DNA of 64,000 nt from an uncultured Acidobacteriota bacterium (GCA_963702425.1 CAVPCQ010000037.1:1-64000), one strand, 5' to 3'. Shown: positions 18,689 to 29,695, counted from the first letter of the stretch. A program made the numbers and translations. The notes: generated from the letters alone by a model not told the origin.

Positions 18689-20338
<1,650 letters not shown>

Positions 20339-20626
20339 TTACTGAATGACGCCGAGGATCTCTTCCTCGCGCAGGATCACGTACTCCTCGCCTTCGATCT
20401 TGACCTCGTTGCCGGAGTACTTGCCGAACAGCACGCGGTCGCCCTTCTTCACGTCGAGCGCGTGGACCTTCCCCTGCTCGTCGCGTTTTCCGCTGCCGAC
20501 GGCGATGACCTCGCCCTCCTGCGGCTTTTCTTTCGCGGTATCGGGGATGATGATTCCGGACTTGGTCTTCTCCGTGCCCTCGATCCGCCTGATCAGGACC
20601 CGGTCGTGGAGCGGCTTGAGCTTCAT
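20339..20626 (-). CDS. groES: Co-chaperonin GroES
   Basis: [12 protein letters not shown]...[15 protein letters not shown]; RBS upstream. Confidence 0.99.
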
Positions 20627-20688
20627 CGTTTCGTCCCTCCTAAACAACTGATCTGTATGGTTTTGCGGTTTGCGTGGGGGAGTGTCGA

Positions 20689-20715
20689 TTAGCACTCCTC
20701 CCCAGCGACTGCTAA
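20689..20715. promoter_or_regulatory. CIRCE element (HrcA operator)
   Basis: TTAGCACTC-N9-GACTGCTAA, one mismatch to the consensus, upstream of groES. Confidence 0.92.
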
Positions 20716-20743
20716 CAGTAAGACCGGCCCCGCGGGCTGTCAA
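20715..20743 (-). promoter_or_regulatory. groESL sigma70 promoter TTGACA-N17-TACTGT
   Basis: -35 at 20743-20738, -10 at 20720-20715, abutting the CIRCE. Confidence 0.75.
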
Positions 20744-20884
20744 GAAAGACCCGGCAGCGGGGCCCCCGCATCCCGGAGTCGCCTTTGAGGTTGCGTTCAG
20801 GCGCGCCTTCGCCGCACATAACAGGCAGGAGCACGCGGTCAGGGCTTCGTTCGACCCGGGGAGAGGCGCAAGGGGGCCAGGACC

Positions 20885-22723
20885 ATGGGAGAGAAGAACG
20901 GACCGATCGTGCCGTACGATCCCGAGGCACTCGGCCTGCGCCTGTCCCACGCGGCGGAGTTGCTCGGTCTGCCGCCGCCGGAAGCTCCCGAGCTGGATCA
21001 CCTCGTCGGTGTCGTCACCCGTTGCTCGGCGCTGCTCGGCGACGTCTACACCGACGCGCGGCTGCGCGCGATCCTGGCCGACGAGCCGCGCCGCCTGGCG
21101 CGGCTCGCCGCCGCGCCGTGGTTCCGGCCGCTCGCCGGTGGTTCCGCGTCGTCCGGCGTGCTGCGCCTCTCGCGGTTGCCGGACGAGGTCCGCGGCGTCG
21201 GCGACAAGGCGCTCTTCGACGTCGCGCTGACCGGCCGCTCGGCCGTGCGCGGAGTCTCGCTCGAGGACCTCGGGCCGCGCGCCTACCGGCTTGCGGCGGA
21301 GGTGCTCGAGGTCCTCGCCGACGACGCGCGCCTGCGCGAGCACTTCCTGTCCGGCGCTCCCGGCCGGCCCGGCCCGATCCGCACGCTCGAGGAGGAGGTC
21401 TCGTTCCTGCGGCGCTGCGCGGAGCGTTTCGACGTCTACTCGCGGCTGCTGCGGCACGCGGGGGACGATGTACCGCACGACTCCGTCCCGCCGACCTTCC
21501 TGACGCGGGCCCTCCCGGCTCCGGCGCCGTCCGCCGCGGCTCCGCTGCCGGTCCCGCTGCGCCGCCCGGCGCCCCGCCTCGTCGAGCGGGGCCTGGGCCG
21601 CGACCAGCTGCTCACCGCCTACGAGCGCCTGCTGCTGTTCGCCGGGCTCGATCTCGAGGAACTTCGGGCGGAGCTGGCGGCGGAGGTCGTCGACCAGCCC
21701 GAGGCGGTCGCGACCCTGATCGACGATTTCGCGCTCTACGCGGTCGGCACCCAGAACCTCGCGCGGCCGGCAAGCTACTTCCTCGTCGGGCCGACCGGGG
21801 TGGGTAAGAACTACCTGGTCGAGCGGCTCGCCGCGGCGCTCTCGCGGCGCTGGGAGACCGAGGTCCCGCTGCTGACGATCGAGGGCCCGAACTACACCTA
21901 CCCCTCCGACATCAACGAGCTGCGAGGTGCGACGCGCGGCTTCGTCCGGTCCGAAGAGCCGGGGCTCCTGACCTCGTTCCACGAGCGCGCAGCCGCGGCC
22001 CCGCTGTCGGTGATCCTGATCGACGAGGTCGAGAAGGCGCACCCGCAGCTGATCCGCTTCTTCCTCTCGATTCTCGACCGCGGCACGACGACCGACGCCC
22101 ACGGCAACGAGCTGTCGTTCGCCGGCTCGCTGATCTTCTTCACCTCGAACATCGGCCACGAGGCCGCGTCCCAGGGGACGAGCCGGCCGATCGGGTTCGG
22201 CGGCGAGGAGGAGGCCGAGGCGGCCTACCGCGCGGAGCTTTCCCACTCGCTCAAGCGCGCGCTGCCGCCGGAGTTCATCAACCGGGTCAAGCTGGTCCGC
22301 TTCCGCCACCTGCCGCGCTCCTCGGCCGAGCGGATCGTCGAGCTGGAGTTCGGGAAGATCGCCGCGCGCTACCGCGAGCTGCACGGTGTCGAGCTGGCCC
22401 TGACCGCCGCCGGCCGCGAGGCGCTCCTGGCTCGCGGGTACTCGCACGAGTACGGCGCACGGCACCTCGCGGCCGTGCTGCAGCGGACCTGCAACGTGGA
22501 GATCGGCCGGATGCTGCGCCGCGACGAGGCGCAGCCCCACGGCGTGGCGCGCGCGCTGATCGAGCGGCTGCGCGAAGCGCGCGGGACCGAGGGGCCGGTC
22601 GACCTCTCCGCGCTGGAGCACGAGGTCCACGAGGCGGCGCGAGCCCGCGTCGGCTACGCGCGGATCCTGGTCGACGCGGAGCAGGGCGAGATCGTCTACC
22701 GCCGGGAAGAGGGGCTCCCGTGA
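20885..22723 (+). CDS. Clp/Hsp100-type AAA+ ATPase with a single (D2-type) module and an uncharacterised helical N-domain
   Basis: Walker A GPTGVGKN, Walker [22 protein letters not shown] loop, PEFINRV, YGARHL. No D1 module and no Clp_N repeats. Confidence 0.85.
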
Positions 22724-23418
22724 GCCCGGGAACCGTCCCGCGCCCCGCGGCTCCGCTGATCGACCAGCTCGCGCGGCTGATCGAGGCGACCTACGACATC
22801 GATTCCGGAACGGTGCCGCTGGGACGCTTCGTCGTCGGCGATCGCGGCCACGCGCGGCTCACGGCCGGCCGCCGGGTGCGGCAGGCGATCGGCCACGACG
22901 GCCGCGGGGCGGCGATCCTGCTGCGCCCGCTCGAGGACGGCGAACACTGGGCCGCGGCGGTCTACCTGCCGGACGCGCTGGTCCTGCACCTCGAGCGGCA
23001 CGATCCGCGGCGCGCGCTCTCGGACGCCAATGCCGACGGCTTCGCCACGCTGGTGGAGGAGGTCGACCACCTCGTGACGCTCGCCGAGCGCAGCGCGTCC
23101 GGCGCGGCGACCACGCTGCTCGAGCTGGAGTGGCACGCGGCGGTCACGAAGTACCTGGTGCTGGCGCACTTCGCCGGGCGCCTGTCGGGCCGCCCGCTCG
23201 ACGCCGCCGCGCGGGCCTTCGTCGAGGGGCACGTCTTCCACCGCGCGGAATTCGCCGACCCGGACCCGGCGATCCGCGCGCGCTACCGCGAGGCGCACCG
23301 CCTCGGATATCGCTTCGTGCGCGACCTCGCGCGGCAGGGGCCGACCGAGCGTGTGGCGTGCCTCAGGCGCTTTCATCGCGCATCGGCGAGGCAGAAGATC
23401 GAGCGTTACGCGGGCTAG
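22720..23418 (+). CDS. Uncharacterised protein with an EExxH...E motif (zincin-like?)
   Basis: GTGA overlap with the AAA+ gene; LVEEVDHL...[14 protein letters not shown]. Confidence 0.75.
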
Positions 23419-23485
23419 CGAATCCCGCACGACCGAGTGCCCGGCCCGGTCCGGGAGGACCGCGGTGGCGCCTTCGCCGCTCCCG

Positions 23486-24916
23486 CTACTTCTTCTCCGC
23501 CGGGTCGATGTACCCGAGCGAGCGCAGCCGCTCGATCAGCTCCGGGTCCTCGGGATCGGTTTCCTTCTGCGCCGCGGTGTAGCGTGGCCAGGCCGCGACC
23601 GCCTGCTCCAGCAGCGCGGTCAACCGGTCGCGCACGGCGGCGTTGGAGGTGGCGAGATTCTGCCGTTCCTGCGGATCGGCGACGAGGTCGAACAGTTCGG
23701 TGGTCTGCCGCGGAGCGACGCGCCGGTAGAGCTTGTAGCGCCCCACGCGCACCGCCGCCTGGTCCTTGTTGGCGCGGTTGAGTTCGAGCAGCACCGGCGC
23801 TTCCGCGGTCCTCGGAGCCAGCAGGCTGGGGCGATCGACGCGCGGCGGACGTGGCAGGCCCGCCGCGTCGAGCAGGGTCCCGAAGAGATCCGTGTTGCTC
23901 ACGGGTGTCGAGATGCGGCGCCCGCTCGTCGAGCCGGGCAGGCGGATCAGCAGCGGCACGCGCGTCTCCTCGTCGTAGAGCGAGTTGCCGTGCCCGATCC
24001 AACCGCGGTTCATCACCGTTTCTCCGTGATCCGAAGTGATCGCCACCACCGCGCTCGCGACCACCGGCAGGTCGCGGAAGAGCCGCCGCAGCTCGGCGTC
24101 GACGTAAGCGATCTCGCTGTCGTAGAGGGCCCACAGCGCGGCCCGCATCAGCGGGGAGTCGTTGGCGGCGAGGGCCTCGTTCAGGAGCGCCTCCTGCTCG
24201 ACCCCGGCGCAGCGCCGCAGCCACTCGGCGTCGGCGCCGTACGCATCGATCCAGGGTGCGTGGGGAAGGTAGGGTCCGTGGGGATCGAAGTAATGCAGCC
24301 ACAGCAGGAGCGGTTTGCCGGGCGGGCGCGCCGCGACCAGCTCCCGGGCGGCGTCGTTGACCGCCTGCGCGTCCTTCCACGGCATGACCCGGAAGCGGTC
24401 GAAGCCCTGCGAGAAGCCGGTGCGCCGCACGAGATGGGCGTTGCTCGTGACGCCGATCGTCTCGTAGCCGGCGGCCTGGAAGGCCTCGGCGATCGTCGTG
24501 AACCGGGCGTCGAGCACCTGCTGGTTGAAGGCCTTGCCGTTGCGGATCGTGCCCTTGATGACGCCGTGCGCGCGCGGCGGCAGGCCGGTGAAGAGCGAGG
24601 CCATCGAGGGCGGCGTCCAGGACGACGCCGCGTAGGCAGCGTCGAACACGACCGACGTGCGGGCCAGTTCCTCGAGGAAGGGCGTCGTGGGGTGCGGCGA
24701 CCCGTAGAGCGAGCAGCGGTCGGTTCGCAGGGTGTCGATGCTGATGAACACCACGTCGGGCAGGGCGCGCGCCGGCGCCGGCGCCTTCGCCGGAGGGGCG
24801 GGGGTCGCCGGCCTGCCGGACGACCCGGGCCCAAGCGACGCTGCGGCGATCGCGAGCAGGATCGCGGCCCTGCGCAGGTGGCGGGTGGCTGACCCGGATC
24901 GCGCGTTACGTTGCAT
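23486..24916 (-). CDS. Exported sulfatase/alkaline-phosphatase-superfamily hydrolase
   Basis: ISIDTLRTD, SWTPPSMASLFTG, HYFDPHGPY, TSDHGE, ERLRSLGY. Confidence 0.88.
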   Translation of the reverse strand: MQRNARSGSATRHLRRAAILLAIAAASLGPGSSGRPATPAPPAKAPAPARALPDVVFISIDTLRTDRCSLYGSPHPTTPFLEELARTSVVFDAAYAASSWTPPSMASLFTGLPPRAHGVIKGTIRNGKAFNQQVLDARFTTIAEAFQAAGYETIGVTSNAHLVRRTGFSQGFDRFRVMPWKDAQAVNDAARELVAARPPGKPLLLWLHYFDPHGPYLPHAPWIDAYGADAEWLRRCAGVEQEALLNEALAANDSPLMRAALWALYDSEIAYVDAELRRLFRDLPVVASAVVAITSDHGETVMNRGWIGHGNSLYDEETRVPLLIRLPGSTSGRRISTPVSNTDLFGTLLDAAGLPRPPRVDRPSLLAPRTAEAPVLLELNRANKDQAAVRVGRYKLYRRVAPRQTTELFDLVADPQERQNLATSNAAVRDRLTALLEQAVAAWPRYTAAQKETDPEDPELIERLRSLGYIDPAEKK

Positions 24917-24986
24917 GAGGGGCGGATTATGTTGGGCGATACCGCGGGCGGCAACCAACCGGCCCCCCGGGACCTCGCACGACTCG

Positions 24987-26033
24987 TCACGCGCCGCCGA
25001 GCGCGTCCAGCAGCCGCCCCGCCCCGTGCCGCACCGGGTCGCAGCAGGGAAGGCCGGTCTCGTCCTCGAGGGCCCGGGCCGCGCGCTTCGCCGCCGCATC
25101 GTCTTCGAGGTGGAAGGTGTTGAGCGCGATCGCCGCGGTCCTCGGCCGCGGGAACGTCCGGCAACTGGCCGCCAGGTCCTCGTAGAGCCGGGCCAGTTCC
25201 GCGAGGGGAGGGATCGCGATCTCCGGGATCCGGGCCAGCGTCCGCTGCCCGGCCCGGTGGCAGAGCACCAGGTGCGTCGGCATCGCCCCGCGCAGCAGCG
25301 GCAGCGTCGCGGTGCTGGCCGGGTGGACGAGCGAGCCCTGGCCTTCGACCAGCACCAGCGCCGCGTCCGCGCAGGCCAGCACCTCGCGCTCGATCGCACC
25401 GCAGGCGTAGTCGAGGCGCACCGCGTCGAGCGCCACACCGCGGCCGGCGATCGCGATCCCGATCTGGCCGGTGGCGACGAACGCCGCGTCGATCCCGCGC
25501 GCCCGCGCGGCGCGCAGGACCTCGAGCGCGGCGGACATCTTGCCGATCGCCATGTCGCTGCCGACGAAGACGACGCGCCGGTTCGGGAGCCGCGCCGCTG
25601 CGCCGGTCGCGACCGTCAGCCCCTCCGGCTCGACGCGCATGTCCCAGATCCGCTGCCCCGGTCGCAGTGCGGGATGGCGCGGCGCCAGCCGGTCGTGCAG
25701 CCCGTTGACGATCGACAGCCCGAGCCCGACCGCTTCGTCGATCACGCCCCACCAGGCCTCGGGCACGCGGCCGCCGGGCGGCGCTATGCCCAGTACGAGG
25801 ACCTCGGCGCCCAGCGCGCGCGCCTCGGCCAGCGTGGCGACGATCGGCGCCGACCGCGGGATGCGCGTGACCTCCCGTGCGTCACGGCCGGCCGCCTCGG
25901 AGTCGATCACGCAGGCGATCGGGTTCGGGGAGTAGCGCAGCAGGCCGAACCCCATCTTCCCCGCGGGCTGCCGCGTGCTCGCCTCCATGTAGAGGGCGAG
26001 CGGCAGCGTCGGGTCCAGCAGCGACTCAGGCAC
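24987..26033 (-). CDS. DUF1611 domain protein (DgcN-like N-acetyltransferase family)
   Basis: GKMGFGLLRYS, VNGLH, GSDMAIGKM, TGQIGI, VEGQGSL; adjacent to the epimerase. Confidence 0.88.
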   Translation of the reverse strand: MPESLLDPTLPLALYMEASTRQPAGKMGFGLLRYSPNPIACVIDSEAAGRDAREVTRIPRSAPIVATLAEARALGAEVLVLGIAPPGGRVPEAWWGVIDEAVGLGLSIVNGLHDRLAPRHPALRPGQRIWDMRVEPEGLTVATGAAARLPNRRVVFVGSDMAIGKMSAALEVLRAARARGIDAAFVATGQIGIAIAGRGVALDAVRLDYACGAIEREVLACADAALVLVEGQGSLVHPASTATLPLLRGAMPTHLVLCHRAGQRTLARIPEIAIPPLAELARLYEDLAASCRTFPRPRTAAIALNTFHLEDDAAAKRAARALEDETGLPCCDPVRHGAGRLLDALGGA

Positions 26034-27063
26034 GGAGCGCCCCGCCGTGGCCCGGCCGCTCGAGCGGCGCGACGACGCCGTCCGCGAGCGGCGCCCCCTC
26101 CGCCGGGTCGGGTGCGAGGTTGAGGTGCGAGTCGAGATCGAGATGGTCGAACAGCGCGCCGAGCGAGGCCCCGGCCGCGATCGCCACCGACGACTCGCTC
26201 ATGCAGCCGAGCATCGTCGACAGGCCGTGCGCCCGCGCCGCGGCGACGATCCGGAGCGCTTCGGTCACCCCGCCGCACTTCATCAGCTTGAGGTTGAGTC
26301 CGTCGACGCGGTCGGCGAGCCGCGGGACGTCGCCTGCCACGCGGCAGCTCTCGTCGGCGAAGATCGGCAGCGTGCGGCGCGCAAACAGGCGCGGCAGGTC
26401 GTCCTCACGCCCCTCGGCCAGCGGCTGCTCGACATAGTCGACGCCGCGCTCGGCCAGCCAGCGATCCATCGCGACCGCCTCGTCCACCGTCCAGCCGCCG
26501 TTGGCGTCGACCCGCAGCCGGACGCCGAATGGCGCCGCCGCCTCGGCCGCGGCGGCGAAGTGGGCGCGGTCGTGCTCGCGCCCCTCGGGCGAGCCGAGCT
26601 TGATCTTCAGCGCCCGCGCACCGGTGCGGCCGAGAATCTCCGGCACCCGCTCCCGGGTGACCGCGGGCGGGTTGAGCCCGATCGTGACCGAGGTCGGCAC
26701 CGTCGGCCGCGGCAGGCCGAGCAGGACGCGCAGCGGCAGCCCGGCCCGCTTCGCCAGCAGGTCCCAGAGCGCGACGTCGAGTGCCGCCATCGCCGGCGGG
26801 TCGATCTCCCGGGCGCGCATCGCGGCCCATGTCGCCTGAGGCCCGGCGGCCAGGTCGAACGCTGCGGCGAAATCCGAGAGCTGCGCCTGCCCGCGCTCCG
26901 CCGTCCAGTCCGAGGCGACGGCCGGCGCCAGTTCGCCGACCCCCTCGTGCGACCCGTCCGAGGCGAAGACGAAGAGGTTCGAGGACCCGGCCTGCGTCCC
27001 GCGGCTGATCGCCAGCGGGTAGCGCTTGACCAGCGCGATCGTGCGAAAAGCCAGGCGGATCAT
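26026..27063 (-). CDS. Enolase-superfamily dipeptide epimerase (L-Ala-D/L-Glu epimerase / DgcA-like)
   Basis: LKIKLG, VDANGGW, EQP, ADES, KLMKCGG, DLDSHL. Confidence 0.9.
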   Translation of the reverse strand: MIRLAFRTIALVKRYPLAISRGTQAGSSNLFVFASDGSHEGVGELAPAVASDWTAERGQAQLSDFAAAFDLAAGPQATWAAMRAREIDPPAMAALDVALWDLLAKRAGLPLRVLLGLPRPTVPTSVTIGLNPPAVTRERVPEILGRTGARALKIKLGSPEGREHDRAHFAAAAEAAAPFGVRLRVDANGGWTVDEAVAMDRWLAERGVDYVEQPLAEGREDDLPRLFARRTLPIFADESCRVAGDVPRLADRVDGLNLKLMKCGGVTEALRIVAAARAHGLSTMLGCMSESSVAIAAGASLGALFDHLDLDSHLNLAPDPAEGAPLADGVVAPLERPGHGGALRA

Positions 27064-27082
27064 CGCCCCCTCCGGGCCCCCC

Positions 27083-27693
27083 TCACGCGAGCTTGGCCAC
27101 CCTCACCTGCGCCGGGCGGATGACCTGCCCGCCCAGCGCGTAGGCCGGGCGGTATTCCTCGACGACCAGATCGTTCTGGTCCGGATCGGCAGTCGGGACG
27201 ACCGCCACCGCTTCGGCGGTCGCGGGATCGAACGGCAGTCCGATCGTCGCGACCCGCTCCAGCCCCTCCGCCGCCAGCGCGTCGTGCAGCTGGCGCAGCG
27301 ACAGCGCGAGGCCGGCCTTGAGCGGTCCGTCGTCGGCGTGCTCCATCGCCAGGTCGAGGTGGTCCAGCGCGGCGAGCACGCCGCCGAAGGCGCGGGCCAG
27401 GACCTCGCGCACGCGCAGCGCCTGGTCGCGTTCGAGCCGTGCACGGGCATTCTCGAGGTCCTGCTGCGCGGCACGGAACGCGTCCGCCACCTCGCGCAGC
27501 TTGGCCTCGGCCGCCAGCGCGCGGGCCTCCATCGCGTGGACCTGCCCGACCGGGACGACGAGTTCCACGGGGGCCGGCTCCGCGCCGGCTCCGGGGCCGA
27601 CGTCGGCTCGATGCCGGCCGCCTGGGCTTCGTCGTGAGATGGGTGTTCGCGGGGCCCATGGTGTCCGTGGTGTCCGTGATGCCGGTCCTTCAT
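27083..27693 (-). CDS. grpE: GrpE nucleotide exchange factor; probable 1-nt frameshift near 27585 separates a His-rich N-terminus
   Basis: DLENARARLERD, LDHLDLA, FDPATAEAV, YALGGQVIRPAQVRVAK. The ATG at 27693, just after the degP stop, is in another frame. Confidence 0.8.
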
Positions 27694-27701
27694 GCGTCGA
27701 T

Positions 27702-29081
27702 CTACCTCCGGGTCGGAAGCGTCAGCCGGTAGCGCCCCGAGCGCGTCGCGATCACCAGGTTGACGGCGCGCCGGTACAGCGAGACCGGCATTTCATCATA
27801 GAAGTCGCCCGACTTCTCGACCGGGCGGCCGTTGATCTGCAGGACCGCCATCCCCTGCGCCAGGCCGCGCTGGCCGGCCTCGGAGTCGGAGCGGACCTGG
27901 TCGACGACGGCGCCCCCGTTCTTGCCGTCGACGACCGAGAAGCCCAGCACCAGCTGCGCGACGCGCACGCCGAGATCGCGCGTGAAGGCGGTCGGCCGGA
28001 AGGTCCGGCTCAGCAGCTGCTCGTCGCGCCGCAGCTTGACGGTCGCGCTCCCGCCGATCCCGATCCGCGCCAGCGCGGTGTCGAACTCGGAGACCGAGCC
28101 GATCTTCTGCCCGTTCAGCTCGACCAGCACGTCGGCCGCCTGGATCCCCGCCGCCGCGGCCGGGCTGTCGCCGAACACGCGCCAGACGACCACCCCGCCG
28201 TTCGGGCTGGCCATCTCCGCCTCGTCCGCGGCGCCGAGGACCATCCCGGTCCACAGCGGCCGCACCCGGCCGAACGACTTCAGCTCCTCGTAGACCTTGC
28301 GGCCGCGCGCGATCGGGATCGCGAAGCCGAGGTTCTGGCCCGAGGCGACGATCTGCGCGTTGATCCCGATCAGCTCGCCCAGGATGTTCACCAGCGCGCC
28401 GCCCGAGTTGCCCGGGTTGATCGCGGCGTCGGTCTGGATGAAGTCGGCGTAGCGGACCGCCTGGCGGTCGGGACCCGGGAGCGAGCGGCCGACCGCCGAC
28501 AGGACTCCGACCGTGACCGTGTTCTCGAGCCCGAACGGGTTGCCGATCGCGATCGCCGTCTCGCCGATCATCAGGTCGTCGGAGTCGCCCATCCTCGCGA
28601 ACGGGAAGGGGCCCCGTTCCTTCAGCTTGATCACCGCCAGGTCGGAGTCGCGGTCCGAGCCGACGAGGTCGGCCTCGATCTGCCGCCCGTCGCGCAGCGT
28701 GACCGTGATCTTCGAGGCCTGCGAGATGACGTGGTCGTTGGTCAGGACGTAGCCGTCGGCGGTGACGATCACCCCCGAGCCGAGCGAGTTCTCGATCCGC
28801 TGGCGCGGGGCGCGGCGCTGGCCGCCGCCGAAGAACCACTCGAAGGGGTCGACGAAGTCGGCGAACGGGTTCTCGACCCGGGTCTCGGTCGAGATGTTGA
28901 CGACGGCCGGCGCGACCTTCTCGACCGCGTCGACGATCTCGTTGTGGCGCAGCTCGCGCGGCGTCGCGGCGTAGGCTGCATCGAGGCCGGCGCTGCCGAC
29001 GGCGAGGGCGACGAGCAACGGGAGGCAGGGGACCGCGCGGGCGGCCGGGCGGAACGGGGATGCGGCAATCACCGGGCACAC
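27702..29081 (-). CDS. degP: DegP/HtrA serine protease with 2 PDZ domains
   Basis: LGSGVI, TNDHV, DSDLAV, QTDAAINPGNSGG; signal peptide. Confidence 0.92.
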   Translation of the reverse strand: MCPVIAASPFRPAARAVPCLPLLVALAVGSAGLDAAYAATPRELRHNEIVDAVEKVAPAVVNISTETRVENPFADFVDPFEWFFGGGQRRAPRQRIENSLGSGVIVTADGYVLTNDHVISQASKITVTLRDGRQIEADLVGSDRDSDLAVIKLKERGPFPFARMGDSDDLMIGETAIAIGNPFGLENTVTVGVLSAVGRSLPGPDRQAVRYADFIQTDAAINPGNSGGALVNILGELIGINAQIVASGQNLGFAIPIARGRKVYEELKSFGRVRPLWTGMVLGAADEAEMASPNGGVVVWRVFGDSPAAAAGIQAADVLVELNGQKIGSVSEFDTALARIGIGGSATVKLRRDEQLLSRTFRPTAFTRDLGVRVAQLVLGFSVVDGKNGGAVVDQVRSDSEAGQRGLAQGMAVLQINGRPVEKSGDFYDEMPVSLYRRAVNLVIATRSGRYRLTLPTRR

Positions 29082-29136: not shown

Positions 29137-29571
29137 TCAGTCTGCCTGAACCGGGACCCGGCGGCTCCCCGACTCGTCGCGGCGGCCGACGACGACCTCC
29201 AGCACCCCGAGCTGGTAGGTCGCCCGGGCGCGGTCCGGGTCGGCCGATTCAGGCAGGGCGTAGCGTCGGACGAACGGGCCGAATGGGCGTTCGAGGCGCC
29301 GCGCTCCGGCGGGGTCGAGGTCGGCGGGGGGGCGGCGGACCCCCTTGATCGTCAGTTCGCCCGGGTCGATCCGGACCTCGAGGTCGGCCGGGGTGACCCC
29401 CGGGACGTCGGCCTTGAGGACCAGCCGGTCGGGGTACTCGTAGAGGTCCACCCGCGGCGTCCAGTCGCCGGAGCCGGGGCGCGCCTCGTCCCCGTTGCCC
29501 TCGTCGCCGCGGGCCAGCGCTTCCTCGAGAACGCGGTTGATCTTGGCCTTGAGCTCGACCAGCTCCTGCAT
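29137..29571 (-). CDS. Hsp20/alpha-crystallin small heat-shock protein
   Basis: WTPRVDLYE, DVPGV, ERPFGPFVRRYALP, ATYQLGVLEV. Confidence 0.9.
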   Translation of the reverse strand: MQELVELKAKINRVLEEALARGDEGNGDEARPGSGDWTPRVDLYEYPDRLVLKADVPGVTPADLEVRIDPGELTIKGVRRPPADLDPAGARRLERPFGPFVRRYALPESADPDRARATYQLGVLEVVVGRRDESGSRRVPVQAD

Positions 29572-29695
29572 CGTCCCACCCCGTCCGGCGCCGGCCGGGA
29601 ACGGCCGCAAGCCTTCCCTGAATGTACGGCCACCAGCGGGTCGGGACCGTTGATCGCTCCCGGGACGACCGCGCTCGGCCGTCGGCGGGGGCGGA

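Follow-up and report, generated by a model that had tools for sequence, protein, structure and literature searches.

A predicted single-ring Clp-type ATPase and its coupled zincin-fold partner beside groES-groEL in uncultured Acidobacteriota

The gene pair and its Clp-type ATPase

The two overlapping genes described here lie in a 64,000-nt stretch of DNA from an uncultured Acidobacteriota bacterium (GCA_963702425.1, CAVPCQ010000037.1:1-64000), and the whole of this stretch is referred to as the window. The upstream gene (20885-22723, plus strand) encodes a 612-aa ATPase and the downstream gene (22720-23418, plus strand), which begins with GTG, a 232-aa protein referred to as the partner. Situated beside groES-groEL in one class of uncultured Acidobacteriota, the pair has the look of a new kind of protein quality control driven by ATP. 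The two genes meet at CTC CCG TGA / GTG AGC, a 4-nt GTGA overlap that bears out the coupling claimed in a preliminary description of this DNA made from the sequence alone, and the purine-rich GGGAAGAGGGG stands immediately 5' of the partner start. Third-position G+C is 0.93-0.95 over both open reading frames (ORFs), in a genome of 72% G+C, which is the coding signal of real genes. The 3' neighbour of the partner, a sulfatase gene (23486-25438, minus strand), is convergent, and the operon is therefore one of two genes. A scan of positions 20560-23620 for promoters and terminators returned no promoter-like site and a single terminator-like site, which lies inside the downstream gene and is at chance level. 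The features of the pair, in window positions, are as follows.

20885..21469, plus strand: N-domain of the ATPase, residues 1-195, a helical bundle with GDKALF...LGPRAY at residues 105-134
21470..21598, plus strand: variable Pro/Ala-rich linker, residues 196-238, of low conservation, with a predicted local distance difference test score (pLDDT) of 53-56
21599..22537, plus strand: single D2-type AAA+ module, residues 239-551 (large subdomain and D2-small), from Pfam
21788..21811, plus strand: non-canonical Walker A, GPTGVGKN, residues 302-309, in 120/120 of the family
21926..21949, plus strand: pore-1 loop GATRGFVR, residues 348-355, with G348, R351, G352, F353 and R355 each in 120/120
22190..22198, plus strand: I436-G437-F438, predicted tip of the ClpP-docking loop (P-loop), [IV]G[YF] in 120/120
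22538..22723, plus strand: family-specific C-terminal extension, residues 552-612, and stop codon, with conserved R586, A587, Y591 and Y605
22720..23418, plus strand: partner of predicted zincin fold (AlphaFold2 model), 232 aa, its GTG start overlapping the ATPase stop
23056..23070, plus strand: E113-E114-V-D116-H117 of the partner, on helix 105-126 at the place of HExxH, with residues invariant in 64 sequences
23122..23136, plus strand: E135-L-E137-W-H139 of the partner, on the next helix, E137 and H139 invariant and E135 nearly so

The ATPase matches Pfam AAA_2 over residues 297-469 (8.5e-31, 107.7 bits, cut-off 27) and ClpB_D2-small over residues 477-551 (1.4e-11, 44.7 bits, cut-off 21.9) and nothing else, in agreement with the sole ClpA/B/C D2-type AAA+ module described previously. 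Against the NCBIfam ClpB, ClpA and ClpV models only the D2 parts align, at scores far below the full-length cut-offs (147.6 bits against 1232 for ClpB and 145.9 bits against 993 for ClpA), and the ClpX equivalog model gives 18.9 bits against a cut-off of 359. The stretch that aligns with these models is limited to residues 257-550, and the D1 module of ClpA/C-type proteins is absent. The Clp_N repeat domain has no match in the ATPase in Pfam or NCBIfam, residues 1-255 match no family in either database, and no Pfam model covers the C-terminal extension. When the family profile was compared with the PDB, Staphylococcus aureus ClpC (6em8, 5.2e-53) and the D2 module of Thermus thermophilus ClpB (4lj8, 1.5e-52) matched about equally well, with human CLPB and ClpX much weaker (ClpX at 7.7e-9, in the C-terminal part). 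The possibility that the gene is a truncated ClpA or ClpC pseudogene is rejected by the conservation and length of the family, as the ATPase is intact and has at least 562 relatives, the 120 listed having the same two domains only.

Family motif statistics were drawn from these 120 relatives, which range from 45 to 100% identity. Walker B (DE), sensor 1 (TSN), the arginine finger (R467) and sensor 2 (GAR) are kept in 120/120, and the pore loop follows L[RK]G[AS]TRGF[IV]RS throughout, so that the preliminary reading of Walker B, both sensors and the pore loop GATRGFVR stands. The same reading had called Walker A intact, but here the family departs from the canonical GxxxxGK[ST], with GPTGVGKN in 120/120 and Asn in place of the Mg-binding Ser/Thr. 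TorsinA, which is likewise a single D2-related AAA+ module, is described as having the non-canonical Walker A GxxxxGKN (PMC5628414). No torsin chain is present among the 72 PDB sequences matched by the ATPase profile at E <= 0.01 and, unlike torsin, the ATPase keeps both the arginine finger (R467, 120/120) and the Walker B Glu, for which reasons the Asn common to the two families is most likely convergent and torsin ancestry of the ATPase is unsupported. By analogy, the invariant Asn may hint at slow or tightly regulated hydrolysis.

The same genome (G000) encodes a second single-module D2-type Clp-like ATPase outside the window (contig C5, ~69200-71194, plus strand; L158), in which third-position G+C of 0.93-0.99 begins only ~400 codons into a long open frame. 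It has a canonical Walker A (GPTGTGKT), VGF at the P-loop position and no aromatic pore-1 loop, there being a 5-residue gap at GATRGF, and continues into a ~310-aa C-terminal extension.

The tripeptide IGF of the ATPase, placed earlier at the ClpP-docking position, holds that position on closer comparison. The hydrophobic-Gly-aromatic pattern [IV]G[YF] is kept at residues 436-438 in 120/120 relatives (I in 106 and V in 14, G in all 120, Y in 65 and F in 55). IGF aligns gap-free with F670-A671-G672-F673-G674 of S. aureus ClpC, with AGF 671-673 opposite, and also with LGF of the 811-aa two-ring ClpC-like protein encoded in the same genome, while the D2 module of T. thermophilus ClpB is 7 residues shorter at this loop. 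AGF 671-673 of ClpC forms the tip of the P-loop (residues 660-680) and docks in the H-site of ClpP, and interaction with ClpP is abolished in a G672D/F673D mutant (PMC12521514). One canonical clpP is found in the genome (267 bits, G000:C16), next to clpX, and HslU- and Lon-like proteins are likewise encoded. The conservation of the loop suggests that the ATPase docks on ClpP, which we consider moderately likely.

The genome is 91% complete, and its AAA_2 matches include no canonical two-ring ClpB, the 811-aa ClpC-like protein with LGF being the sole two-ring Clp; ~880-aa ClpB-like frames are present in related genomes. Two stretches (G000:C42:300-8200 and G000:C6:4500-12500) both carry hrcA, grpE and a weak ClpP-family match (455-aa frame) at corresponding spacings, the hrcA match on C6 being split over two frames. 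This repeated hrcA-grpE stretch looks duplicated or co-assembled; the contamination estimate of the genome is 5.85%.

The zincin-fold partner and the helical N-domain

The AlphaFold2 model of the partner has a pLDDT of 94.3 and a predicted template modelling score of 0.91, and contains a two-strand sheet. By sequence the partner belongs to no Pfam, NCBIfam or PADLOC family. Its model was compared with 48,161 representative chains by VIA-align, a structural search independent of Foldseek. Entry titles name a clan-MA-type metallopeptidase for 41 of the 50 best chains, and 16 chains reach Z >= 8. The best match is the M1 aminopeptidase tricorn-interacting factor F3 (Z 10.6, root-mean-square deviation 4.1, 170 residues aligned), and others among the best 50 include ACE, ACE2, M3 oligopeptidases, LTA4 hydrolase, thermolysin (Z 7.3), M32, DPP III and LasB; FtsH M41 is not among these 50. 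The fold of the partner is therefore predicted to be that of a gluzincin-type metallopeptidase.

Six residues are invariant in the 64 partner sequences, namely E113, E114, D116, H117, E137 and H139. E113 and H117 stand in i, i+4 positions on a long helix (105-126), and E137 lies on the next helix (133-156), 20 residues after H117. A third-ligand Glu is expected on the following helix some 18-25 residues after the motif, which is where E137 stands, and the ligands of thermolysin are spaced as H146-E166. On the model, E113, H117 and E137 fit the gluzincin HExxH...E layout with the first zinc-binding His replaced by Glu. The EExxH motif noted previously is thus real and invariant, but the partner is not an arbitrary EExxH protein, given its predicted gluzincin fold. 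In the literature searched, the term 'EEXXH motif' is used for ZIP8 metal transporters only.

The wider family of the partner is large. A comparison of its profile with 1.84 billion cluster representatives returned 1262 proteins at E <= 1e-3, of which 658 are at E <= 1e-10, nearly all 200-250 aa in length. Subfamilies are characterized by EE[LIV]DH...LLELELHAN, EEI[NT]HA...LELQAK and LEGVSHF...LLELELQAE, with E113, H117 and ELE kept throughout. The remote members tested are without a match in Pfam or NCBIfam, the few members that carry a name are annotated 'hypothetical protein', and the ESM Atlas likewise returned only unnamed 'hypothetical protein' clusters for the partner, the nearest of which are labelled Myxococcota and Acidobacteriota. 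The few taxon-labelled members or nearest clusters of the family belong to Acidobacteriota, Myxococcota and one Competibacterales metagenome-assembled genome (MAG), the last of these being one of the hypothetical proteins. Catalysis by the partner is uncertain because its first zinc ligand is Glu and because the largest remote subfamily has Gly where the general base would be, and the reading of the modelled partner as a working peptidase, rather than as a peptide- or metal-binding co-factor, falls slightly short of an even call.

With regard to the ATPase N-domain, the AlphaFold2 model of residues 1-195 consists of helices throughout (pLDDT 82), and residues 201-230, at pLDDT 53-56, for that reason fit a Pro/Ala linker; the helical domain of ~200 aa and the linker claimed before are both borne out by the model. 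A Foldseek search of the PDB with the N-domain model found nothing at E <= 0.001. A wide VIA-align search reached a best Z of 6.6, below the level that counts for helical proteins, with generic helical, MIT-like and designed-repeat matches to unrelated proteins mixed. The ESM Atlas gave no usable match to residues 1-200, and a word-index search with the N-domain alone over proteins of 140-447 aa gave none at E <= 0.01.

A candidate counterpart of the N-domain is encoded next to the remote relatives of the partner. A metagenome scan with the remote partner subfamily returned 80 loci, 75 of which have a ~210-aa helical gene as the immediate upstream neighbour in the same orientation (a strict rule recognizes 68, and the other 7 show a shorter high-scoring segment pair; 2 loci are without the gene, 3 are untestable, and clustering alone grouped 58). 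The consensus of this stand-alone helical protein is RLGDVSLFIAGFF...VDIDYHIAMGGxAYG, and its RLGDVALF...MGGxAYG has the motif and spacing of N-domain residues 105-134; the N-domain stretch set against the consensus is residues 104-137. The stand-alone pair of a GDxALF...GxxAY gene and an ExxH...LLELE-type gene, which the preliminary description had mentioned, therefore exists. The ATPase is found in 0/80 of these loci, and groES/groEL are nearby in 3/80. A search of PDB sequences with the helical profile gave chance-level rows only (E >= 0.12).

In HMMER (Z=1), the stand-alone profile gave per-sequence P values of 6e-6 to 1e-2 for 108/120 ATPases, in consistent alignments that place profile positions 88-147+ against N-domain residues 102-160+ (region ~102-190). 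In a shuffle control, the real N-domains had a median of 1.2 bits and a maximum of 12.6, against -2.6 and 6.6 for 2340 shuffles; 2% of the shuffles reach the real median, and 22% of real N-domains exceed the shuffled 99th percentile. This weak signal, together with the same position upstream of homologous genes, makes homology between the N-domain and the stand-alone helical protein fairly probable. The fusion of a stand-alone domain to an unfoldase, as claimed earlier, is weakly favoured by the shared motif and the HMMER signal, but profile-profile homology is not significant.

A solo 205-aa relative of the stand-alone helical protein (HIGDFTLFF, E 7e-9 to the profile) is encoded at L156:4157-4774 (minus strand; genome G304, contig C2), in a genome of the same class that has an ATPase-partner pair elsewhere. 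Its gene adjoins those of a ROK-family kinase and a TPR/PqqD protein, and there is no partner-family gene beside it. At the remote loci, a ~120-150-aa protein is encoded on the opposite strand downstream of the helical and zincin-fold pair in 23 loci (L093 and ~20 others within L076-L155), and a Nudix-like ~185-aa protein, also downstream on the opposite strand, in 21; a UvrD-like helicase is nearby in 11, the latter two names resting on a reading of the sequence.

Distribution and heat-shock neighbourhood

The named ATPase relatives among the matches listed are all from Acidobacteriota or Polarisedimenticolia MAGs, and the close partner family comprises 66 relatives. In a species-level scan, with one genome per species, 64 partner loci were found, and in 51 of these the gene immediately 5' of the partner, on its strand, encodes the ATPase, which answers the question of whether the two genes co-occur in other genomes. 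The remainder comprises nine loci in which the partner is divergent from groES without the ATPase, one (L040) with neither, two cut by contig ends and an archaeal outlier that is 22% identical and on a short contig. The pair is also present in the record of 'Acidobacteria bacterium Mor1' (CP011806.1, L048). In a sample of the phylum, the partner was found in 39/401 genomes, that is, in 35/39 of the window's class and 4/362 outside it. A full-length ATPase profile gave a family-level match in 80/119 genomes of the class, a paralogue-level match only in 38 and none in 1. Two unpublished genomes are counted here, G152 in both the partner and ATPase tallies and G425 in the ATPase tally, and neither enters any other result given here.

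In one genus the ATPase is missing in 10/10 genomes and the partner is present in the 3/3 tested. The ATPase was not seen without the partner, except in G331, where the ATPase is a fragment at the end of a contig. A maximum-likelihood tree of 60 partner sequences (midpoint-rooted; L064, L066 and L071, which have a short partner match, and one more, L067 or L074, were dropped) places the ATPase-less loci within a 12-row clade (support 100/100), the basal members of which have the ATPase. Since the ATPase-less loci are nested within ATPase-bearing lineages, the ATPase has probably been lost at least twice rather than being ancestrally absent, and, as the partner occurs without it in this nested position, the ATPase looks like the dependent party of the pair.

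The neighbouring heat-shock features of the window are listed below.

18689..20326, minus strand: groEL (Pfam Cpn60_TCP1, 2.8e-83), a conserved divergent neighbour in related loci
20339..20629, minus strand: groES (Pfam Cpn10, 3.7e-38)
20689..20715, no strand: inverted repeat like the controlling inverted repeat of chaperone expression (CIRCE; HrcA operator type), TTAGCACTC-N9-GACTGCTAA, with 1 mismatch to the consensus
27060-27659, minus strand: GrpE-like gene, in a cluster 3.6 kb downstream of the pair
27702-29081, minus strand: HtrA/DegP (Trypsin_2 and PDZ), in the same downstream cluster
29137-29610, minus strand: Hsp20, in the same downstream cluster

The groES-groEL genes are divergent from the pair in 42/43 testable ATPase loci, the exception being L036 and the testable loci being those of the 51 with enough upstream DNA. 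The CIRCE-like repeat of the window stands in a 255-nt intergenic region, at a distance of 60-86 nt from the start of groES and of 170 nt from that of the ATPase gene, and is the sole match in the window, with 0 in 100 shuffles. A CIRCE-like element (<= 4 substitutions) is present in 45/51 related intergenic regions, always 50-112 nt from groES, and hrcA is encoded in the genome. Of the proteostasis neighbours noted previously, groESL is conserved, while GrpE, HtrA and Hsp20, although real here, recur near the pair in only 2/29 long loci, both from the closest relatives, for which reason a wider proteostasis island is rejected. The proposed check of the neighbourhood for links to clpP or groE found the pair linked to groESL and not to clpP.

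The nine loci that have the zincin-fold gene alone, divergent from groES (L042, L043, L051, L060, L061, L063, L066, L067 and L070), are from Acidobacteriota MAGs, one of which is labelled Binatia. Their spacers of 163-303 nt contain a CIRCE-like element, and the flanks examined contain no ATPase.

A proposed mechanism and its rivals

The best explanation, which is offered tentatively, is that the pair is a two-gene, heat-shock-linked, ClpP-coupled unfoldase system, in which the N-domain holds the zincin-fold protein at the substrate-entry face. The 612-aa protein would form a single-ring hexameric unfoldase of ClpA/B/C D2 type, threading substrates by its GF[IV] pore loops. With its [IV]G[YF] loops it would dock on the single ClpP of the cell, joining ClpX and the two-ring ClpC-like protein as a partner of this peptidase. 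The N-domain, which would derive from a stand-alone protein encoded, in other phyla, just upstream of a partner-family gene, may give the motor an integral platform on which the translationally coupled partner (232 aa) docks. The partner, with a putative metal site of Glu/His/Glu (E113, H117, E137), E114 as candidate general base and a probably active cleft, would sit at the N-terminal entry face of the ring and select or clip damaged proteins, which the ring would then unfold into ClpP. In Clp rings the entry face bears the N-domains and adaptors and the exit face bears the P-loops, and the adaptors ClpS and MecA bind the N-terminal side of Clp ATPases, an arrangement that an N-terminal docking domain matches. 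Because such a domain and a conserved ClpP-type loop fit this geometry, the partner is placed at the entry and ClpP at the exit. The sequence features and their conservation, the predicted fold, the order of the genes and their co-occurrence come directly from the data, and from these we infer hexamer formation, ClpP docking, binding of the N-domain to the partner, metal binding, peptidase activity and heat induction. That the ring is an active, if slow, unfoldase is likely, and the N-domain may well bind the partner, which is somewhat better than an even prospect. The suggestion made at the outset, that the pair is a substrate-recognition or tagging module for a Clp system, agrees with the ClpP-type loop and the co-occurrence of the two genes; nothing supports tagging.

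Clp unfoldases come in few architectures (ClpX, ClpA, ClpC, ClpE, ClpB and some others), and the adaptors that serve them tend to be small proteins in their own right. In the literature searched we found no paper on the pair or on either of its two protein families. If the proposal is true, it shows a new ClpP partner arising by domain capture, gives a function to a large unannotated family (1262 cluster representatives with no Pfam or NCBIfam model) and offers a natural bacterial system in which to study the role of a GKN Walker A within a D2-type ring, a topic that has so far been linked with torsins. The Mor1 record or synthetic genes make it testable at the bench. A more far-reaching version, which seems unlikely, is that the helical and zincin-fold pair is a widespread two-component metalloprotein module that captured a Clp D2 motor in one acidobacterial class, giving a hybrid that has a metallopeptidase on its entry side, has ClpP, a serine peptidase, on its exit side and is co-regulated with the chaperonin. 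Such a machine, if real, would be a third bacterial design for ATP-dependent proteolysis, beside FtsH and the classical Clp/Lon/HslUV.

Compared with known systems, the ATPase resembles the D2 ring of ClpC/ClpA working with ClpP in its large and small subdomains, pore aromatic, Walker B, sensor 1, arginine finger, GAR sensor 2 and P-loop tip. It differs from ClpC/ClpA in having no D1 ring, Clp_N repeat domain or M-domain, in its GKN Walker A, in a pore loop of GATRGF[IV]R instead of GAPPGYVG, and in its own helical N-domain, 60-aa C-terminal extension and coupling to a zincin-fold gene. ClpX is likewise single-ringed and docks on ClpP through an IGF loop, but it belongs to another AAA+ subfamily and has a zinc-binding N-domain, and the genome has a ClpX of its own, encoded next to clpP. 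ClpB and Hsp104 have two rings, a coiled-coil M-domain and no ClpP loop, whereas the ATPase has one AAA+ module, no M-domain and a loop 7 residues longer with IGF. Human CLPB (Skd3) is similar in that one ClpB-D2-type module follows an N-terminal domain of non-Clp type, although its match is far weaker (1e-15, against 1e-34 to 1e-40 for ClpC or ClpB), and it is described as a protease-free disaggregase with ankyrin repeats (PMC9934407). With FtsH the pair shares an ATP-driven unfoldase and a zincin-fold domain, but here these are two separate soluble proteins, with a Clp D2 AAA+ module, EExxH rather than HExxH and no membrane anchors, and no M41 or FtsH model in Pfam or NCBIfam matches either protein. 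The partner is like the gluzincins (M1, M2, M3, M4 thermolysin, M32 and M49; clan MA) in its predicted fold and in the i, i+4 ligands with a Glu 20 residues later, and differs from them in that the first His is Glu, in its length of only 232 aa, in its two-strand sheet and in matching no sequence model.

Several observations weigh against the ClpP-coupled proposal. The N-domain is linked to the stand-alone helical family by an hhalign E-value of 0.11 on the motif stretch, which is not significant, and a second run of this type gave 0.6 on an unrelated stretch; when the stand-alone profile was searched against 61 genomes of the class, the ATPase was found in 0/61 at E <= 1. The assignment of the partner to a peptidase fold comes from one aligner and one predicted model: Foldseek found nothing in the PDB at E <= 0.001, and no peptidase family model matches the partner in Pfam or NCBIfam or in a profile search of PDB sequences, which gave chance-level rows only (E >= 0.12). 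At E <= 5, Pfam gave no peptidase family for any of the 64 partner relatives, nor for 10 remote members, for which NCBIfam likewise gave none. In place of HExxH the partner has E113-E114-x-x-H117, with Glu instead of the first His in 64/64, and in the LEGVSHF group, the largest of the remote subfamilies, Gly takes the place of the candidate general base E114. The gene for clpP is not linked to the pair, and the binding of the N-domain to the partner and of the ATPase to ClpP are both predictions. The CIRCE-like element is on the groES side, and control over the pair is a candidate function. A Walker A Asn is described for torsinA and DnaC, both with very low ATPase activity (bioRxiv 10.1101/2022.06.23.497301), and a change from canonical to non-canonical Walker A is reported to have lowered the activity of ClpB (cited in PMC5628414).

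Some of these points feed rival explanations. The pair could be a self-contained, split, FtsH-like ATP-dependent metalloprotease, without ClpP, in which the ring feeds the zincin-fold partner as sole peptidase and the [IV]G[YF] loop either serves to bind the partner or survives as a conserved relic. The AAA+ motor is after all coupled in translation to a protein of predicted zincin fold in which the putative metal ligands are conserved, FtsH is a working example of an AAA+ and zincin design, clpP is unlinked and the ATPase is never seen without the partner. The loop, however, aligns with the ClpP-docking loop of ClpC and is hydrophobic-Gly-aromatic in 120/120, FtsH M41 is absent from the 50 best structural matches, and there is no sign that the 232-aa partner forms a ring; by analogy, the presumed partner-binding domain is N-terminal and would face the entry, whereas a compartmental peptidase needs the exit face. 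This explanation is thus considered unlikely. Slightly less probable still is a protease-free remodelling chaperone or disaggregase of the CLPB/Skd3 or torsin kind, in which the partner, a zincin-like co-factor without catalytic activity, would bind unfolded peptides or regulate a slow GKN ATPase. Such a chaperone would account for the layout shared with human CLPB (one D2-type module behind an N-domain; matches at 1e-15 to 3.5e-27), the GKN of torsinA, the degenerate HExxH (EExxH, and EGxSH in remote relatives), the synteny with a chaperonin rather than a protease and the lack of a canonical ClpB among the AAA_2 matches of the 91%-complete genome. It does not account for the P-loop tripeptide, present in 120/120 here and lacking in ClpB (the T. 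thermophilus D2 being 7 residues shorter) and Hsp104 and not known from human CLPB, and the arginine finger and Walker B Glu are kept, unlike in torsin, no chain of which is among the 72 PDB sequences.

The distribution of the partner bears on two further explanations. As the partner is commoner than the ATPase in genomes of the class (35/39 compared with 80/119), and in nine ATPase-less loci adjoins groES in divergent orientation, across a 163-303 nt spacer that holds a CIRCE-like element, the zincin-fold protein might be the main actor, a regulatory heat-shock protease that cleaves a regulator or a chaperonin client, with an accessory ATPase that controls or degrades it. No target is identifiable, however, the remote subfamily is near groES/groEL in only 3/80 loci, and the ATPase-less state looks secondary on the partner tree, which makes this reading improbable. 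The least probable by far is that of a mobile defence or toxin-antitoxin-like module that lies beside groESL by chance. It was suggested by partial PADLOC matches of the ATPase (PDC-M37B, 5.7e-25; DolB, 3.4e-8), and was set aside as these cover the AAA core only and the partner has none. There are also no mobile-element genes among the neighbours scanned, and the pair is near-universal within one class, with a fixed chromosomal position in 42/43 testable loci.

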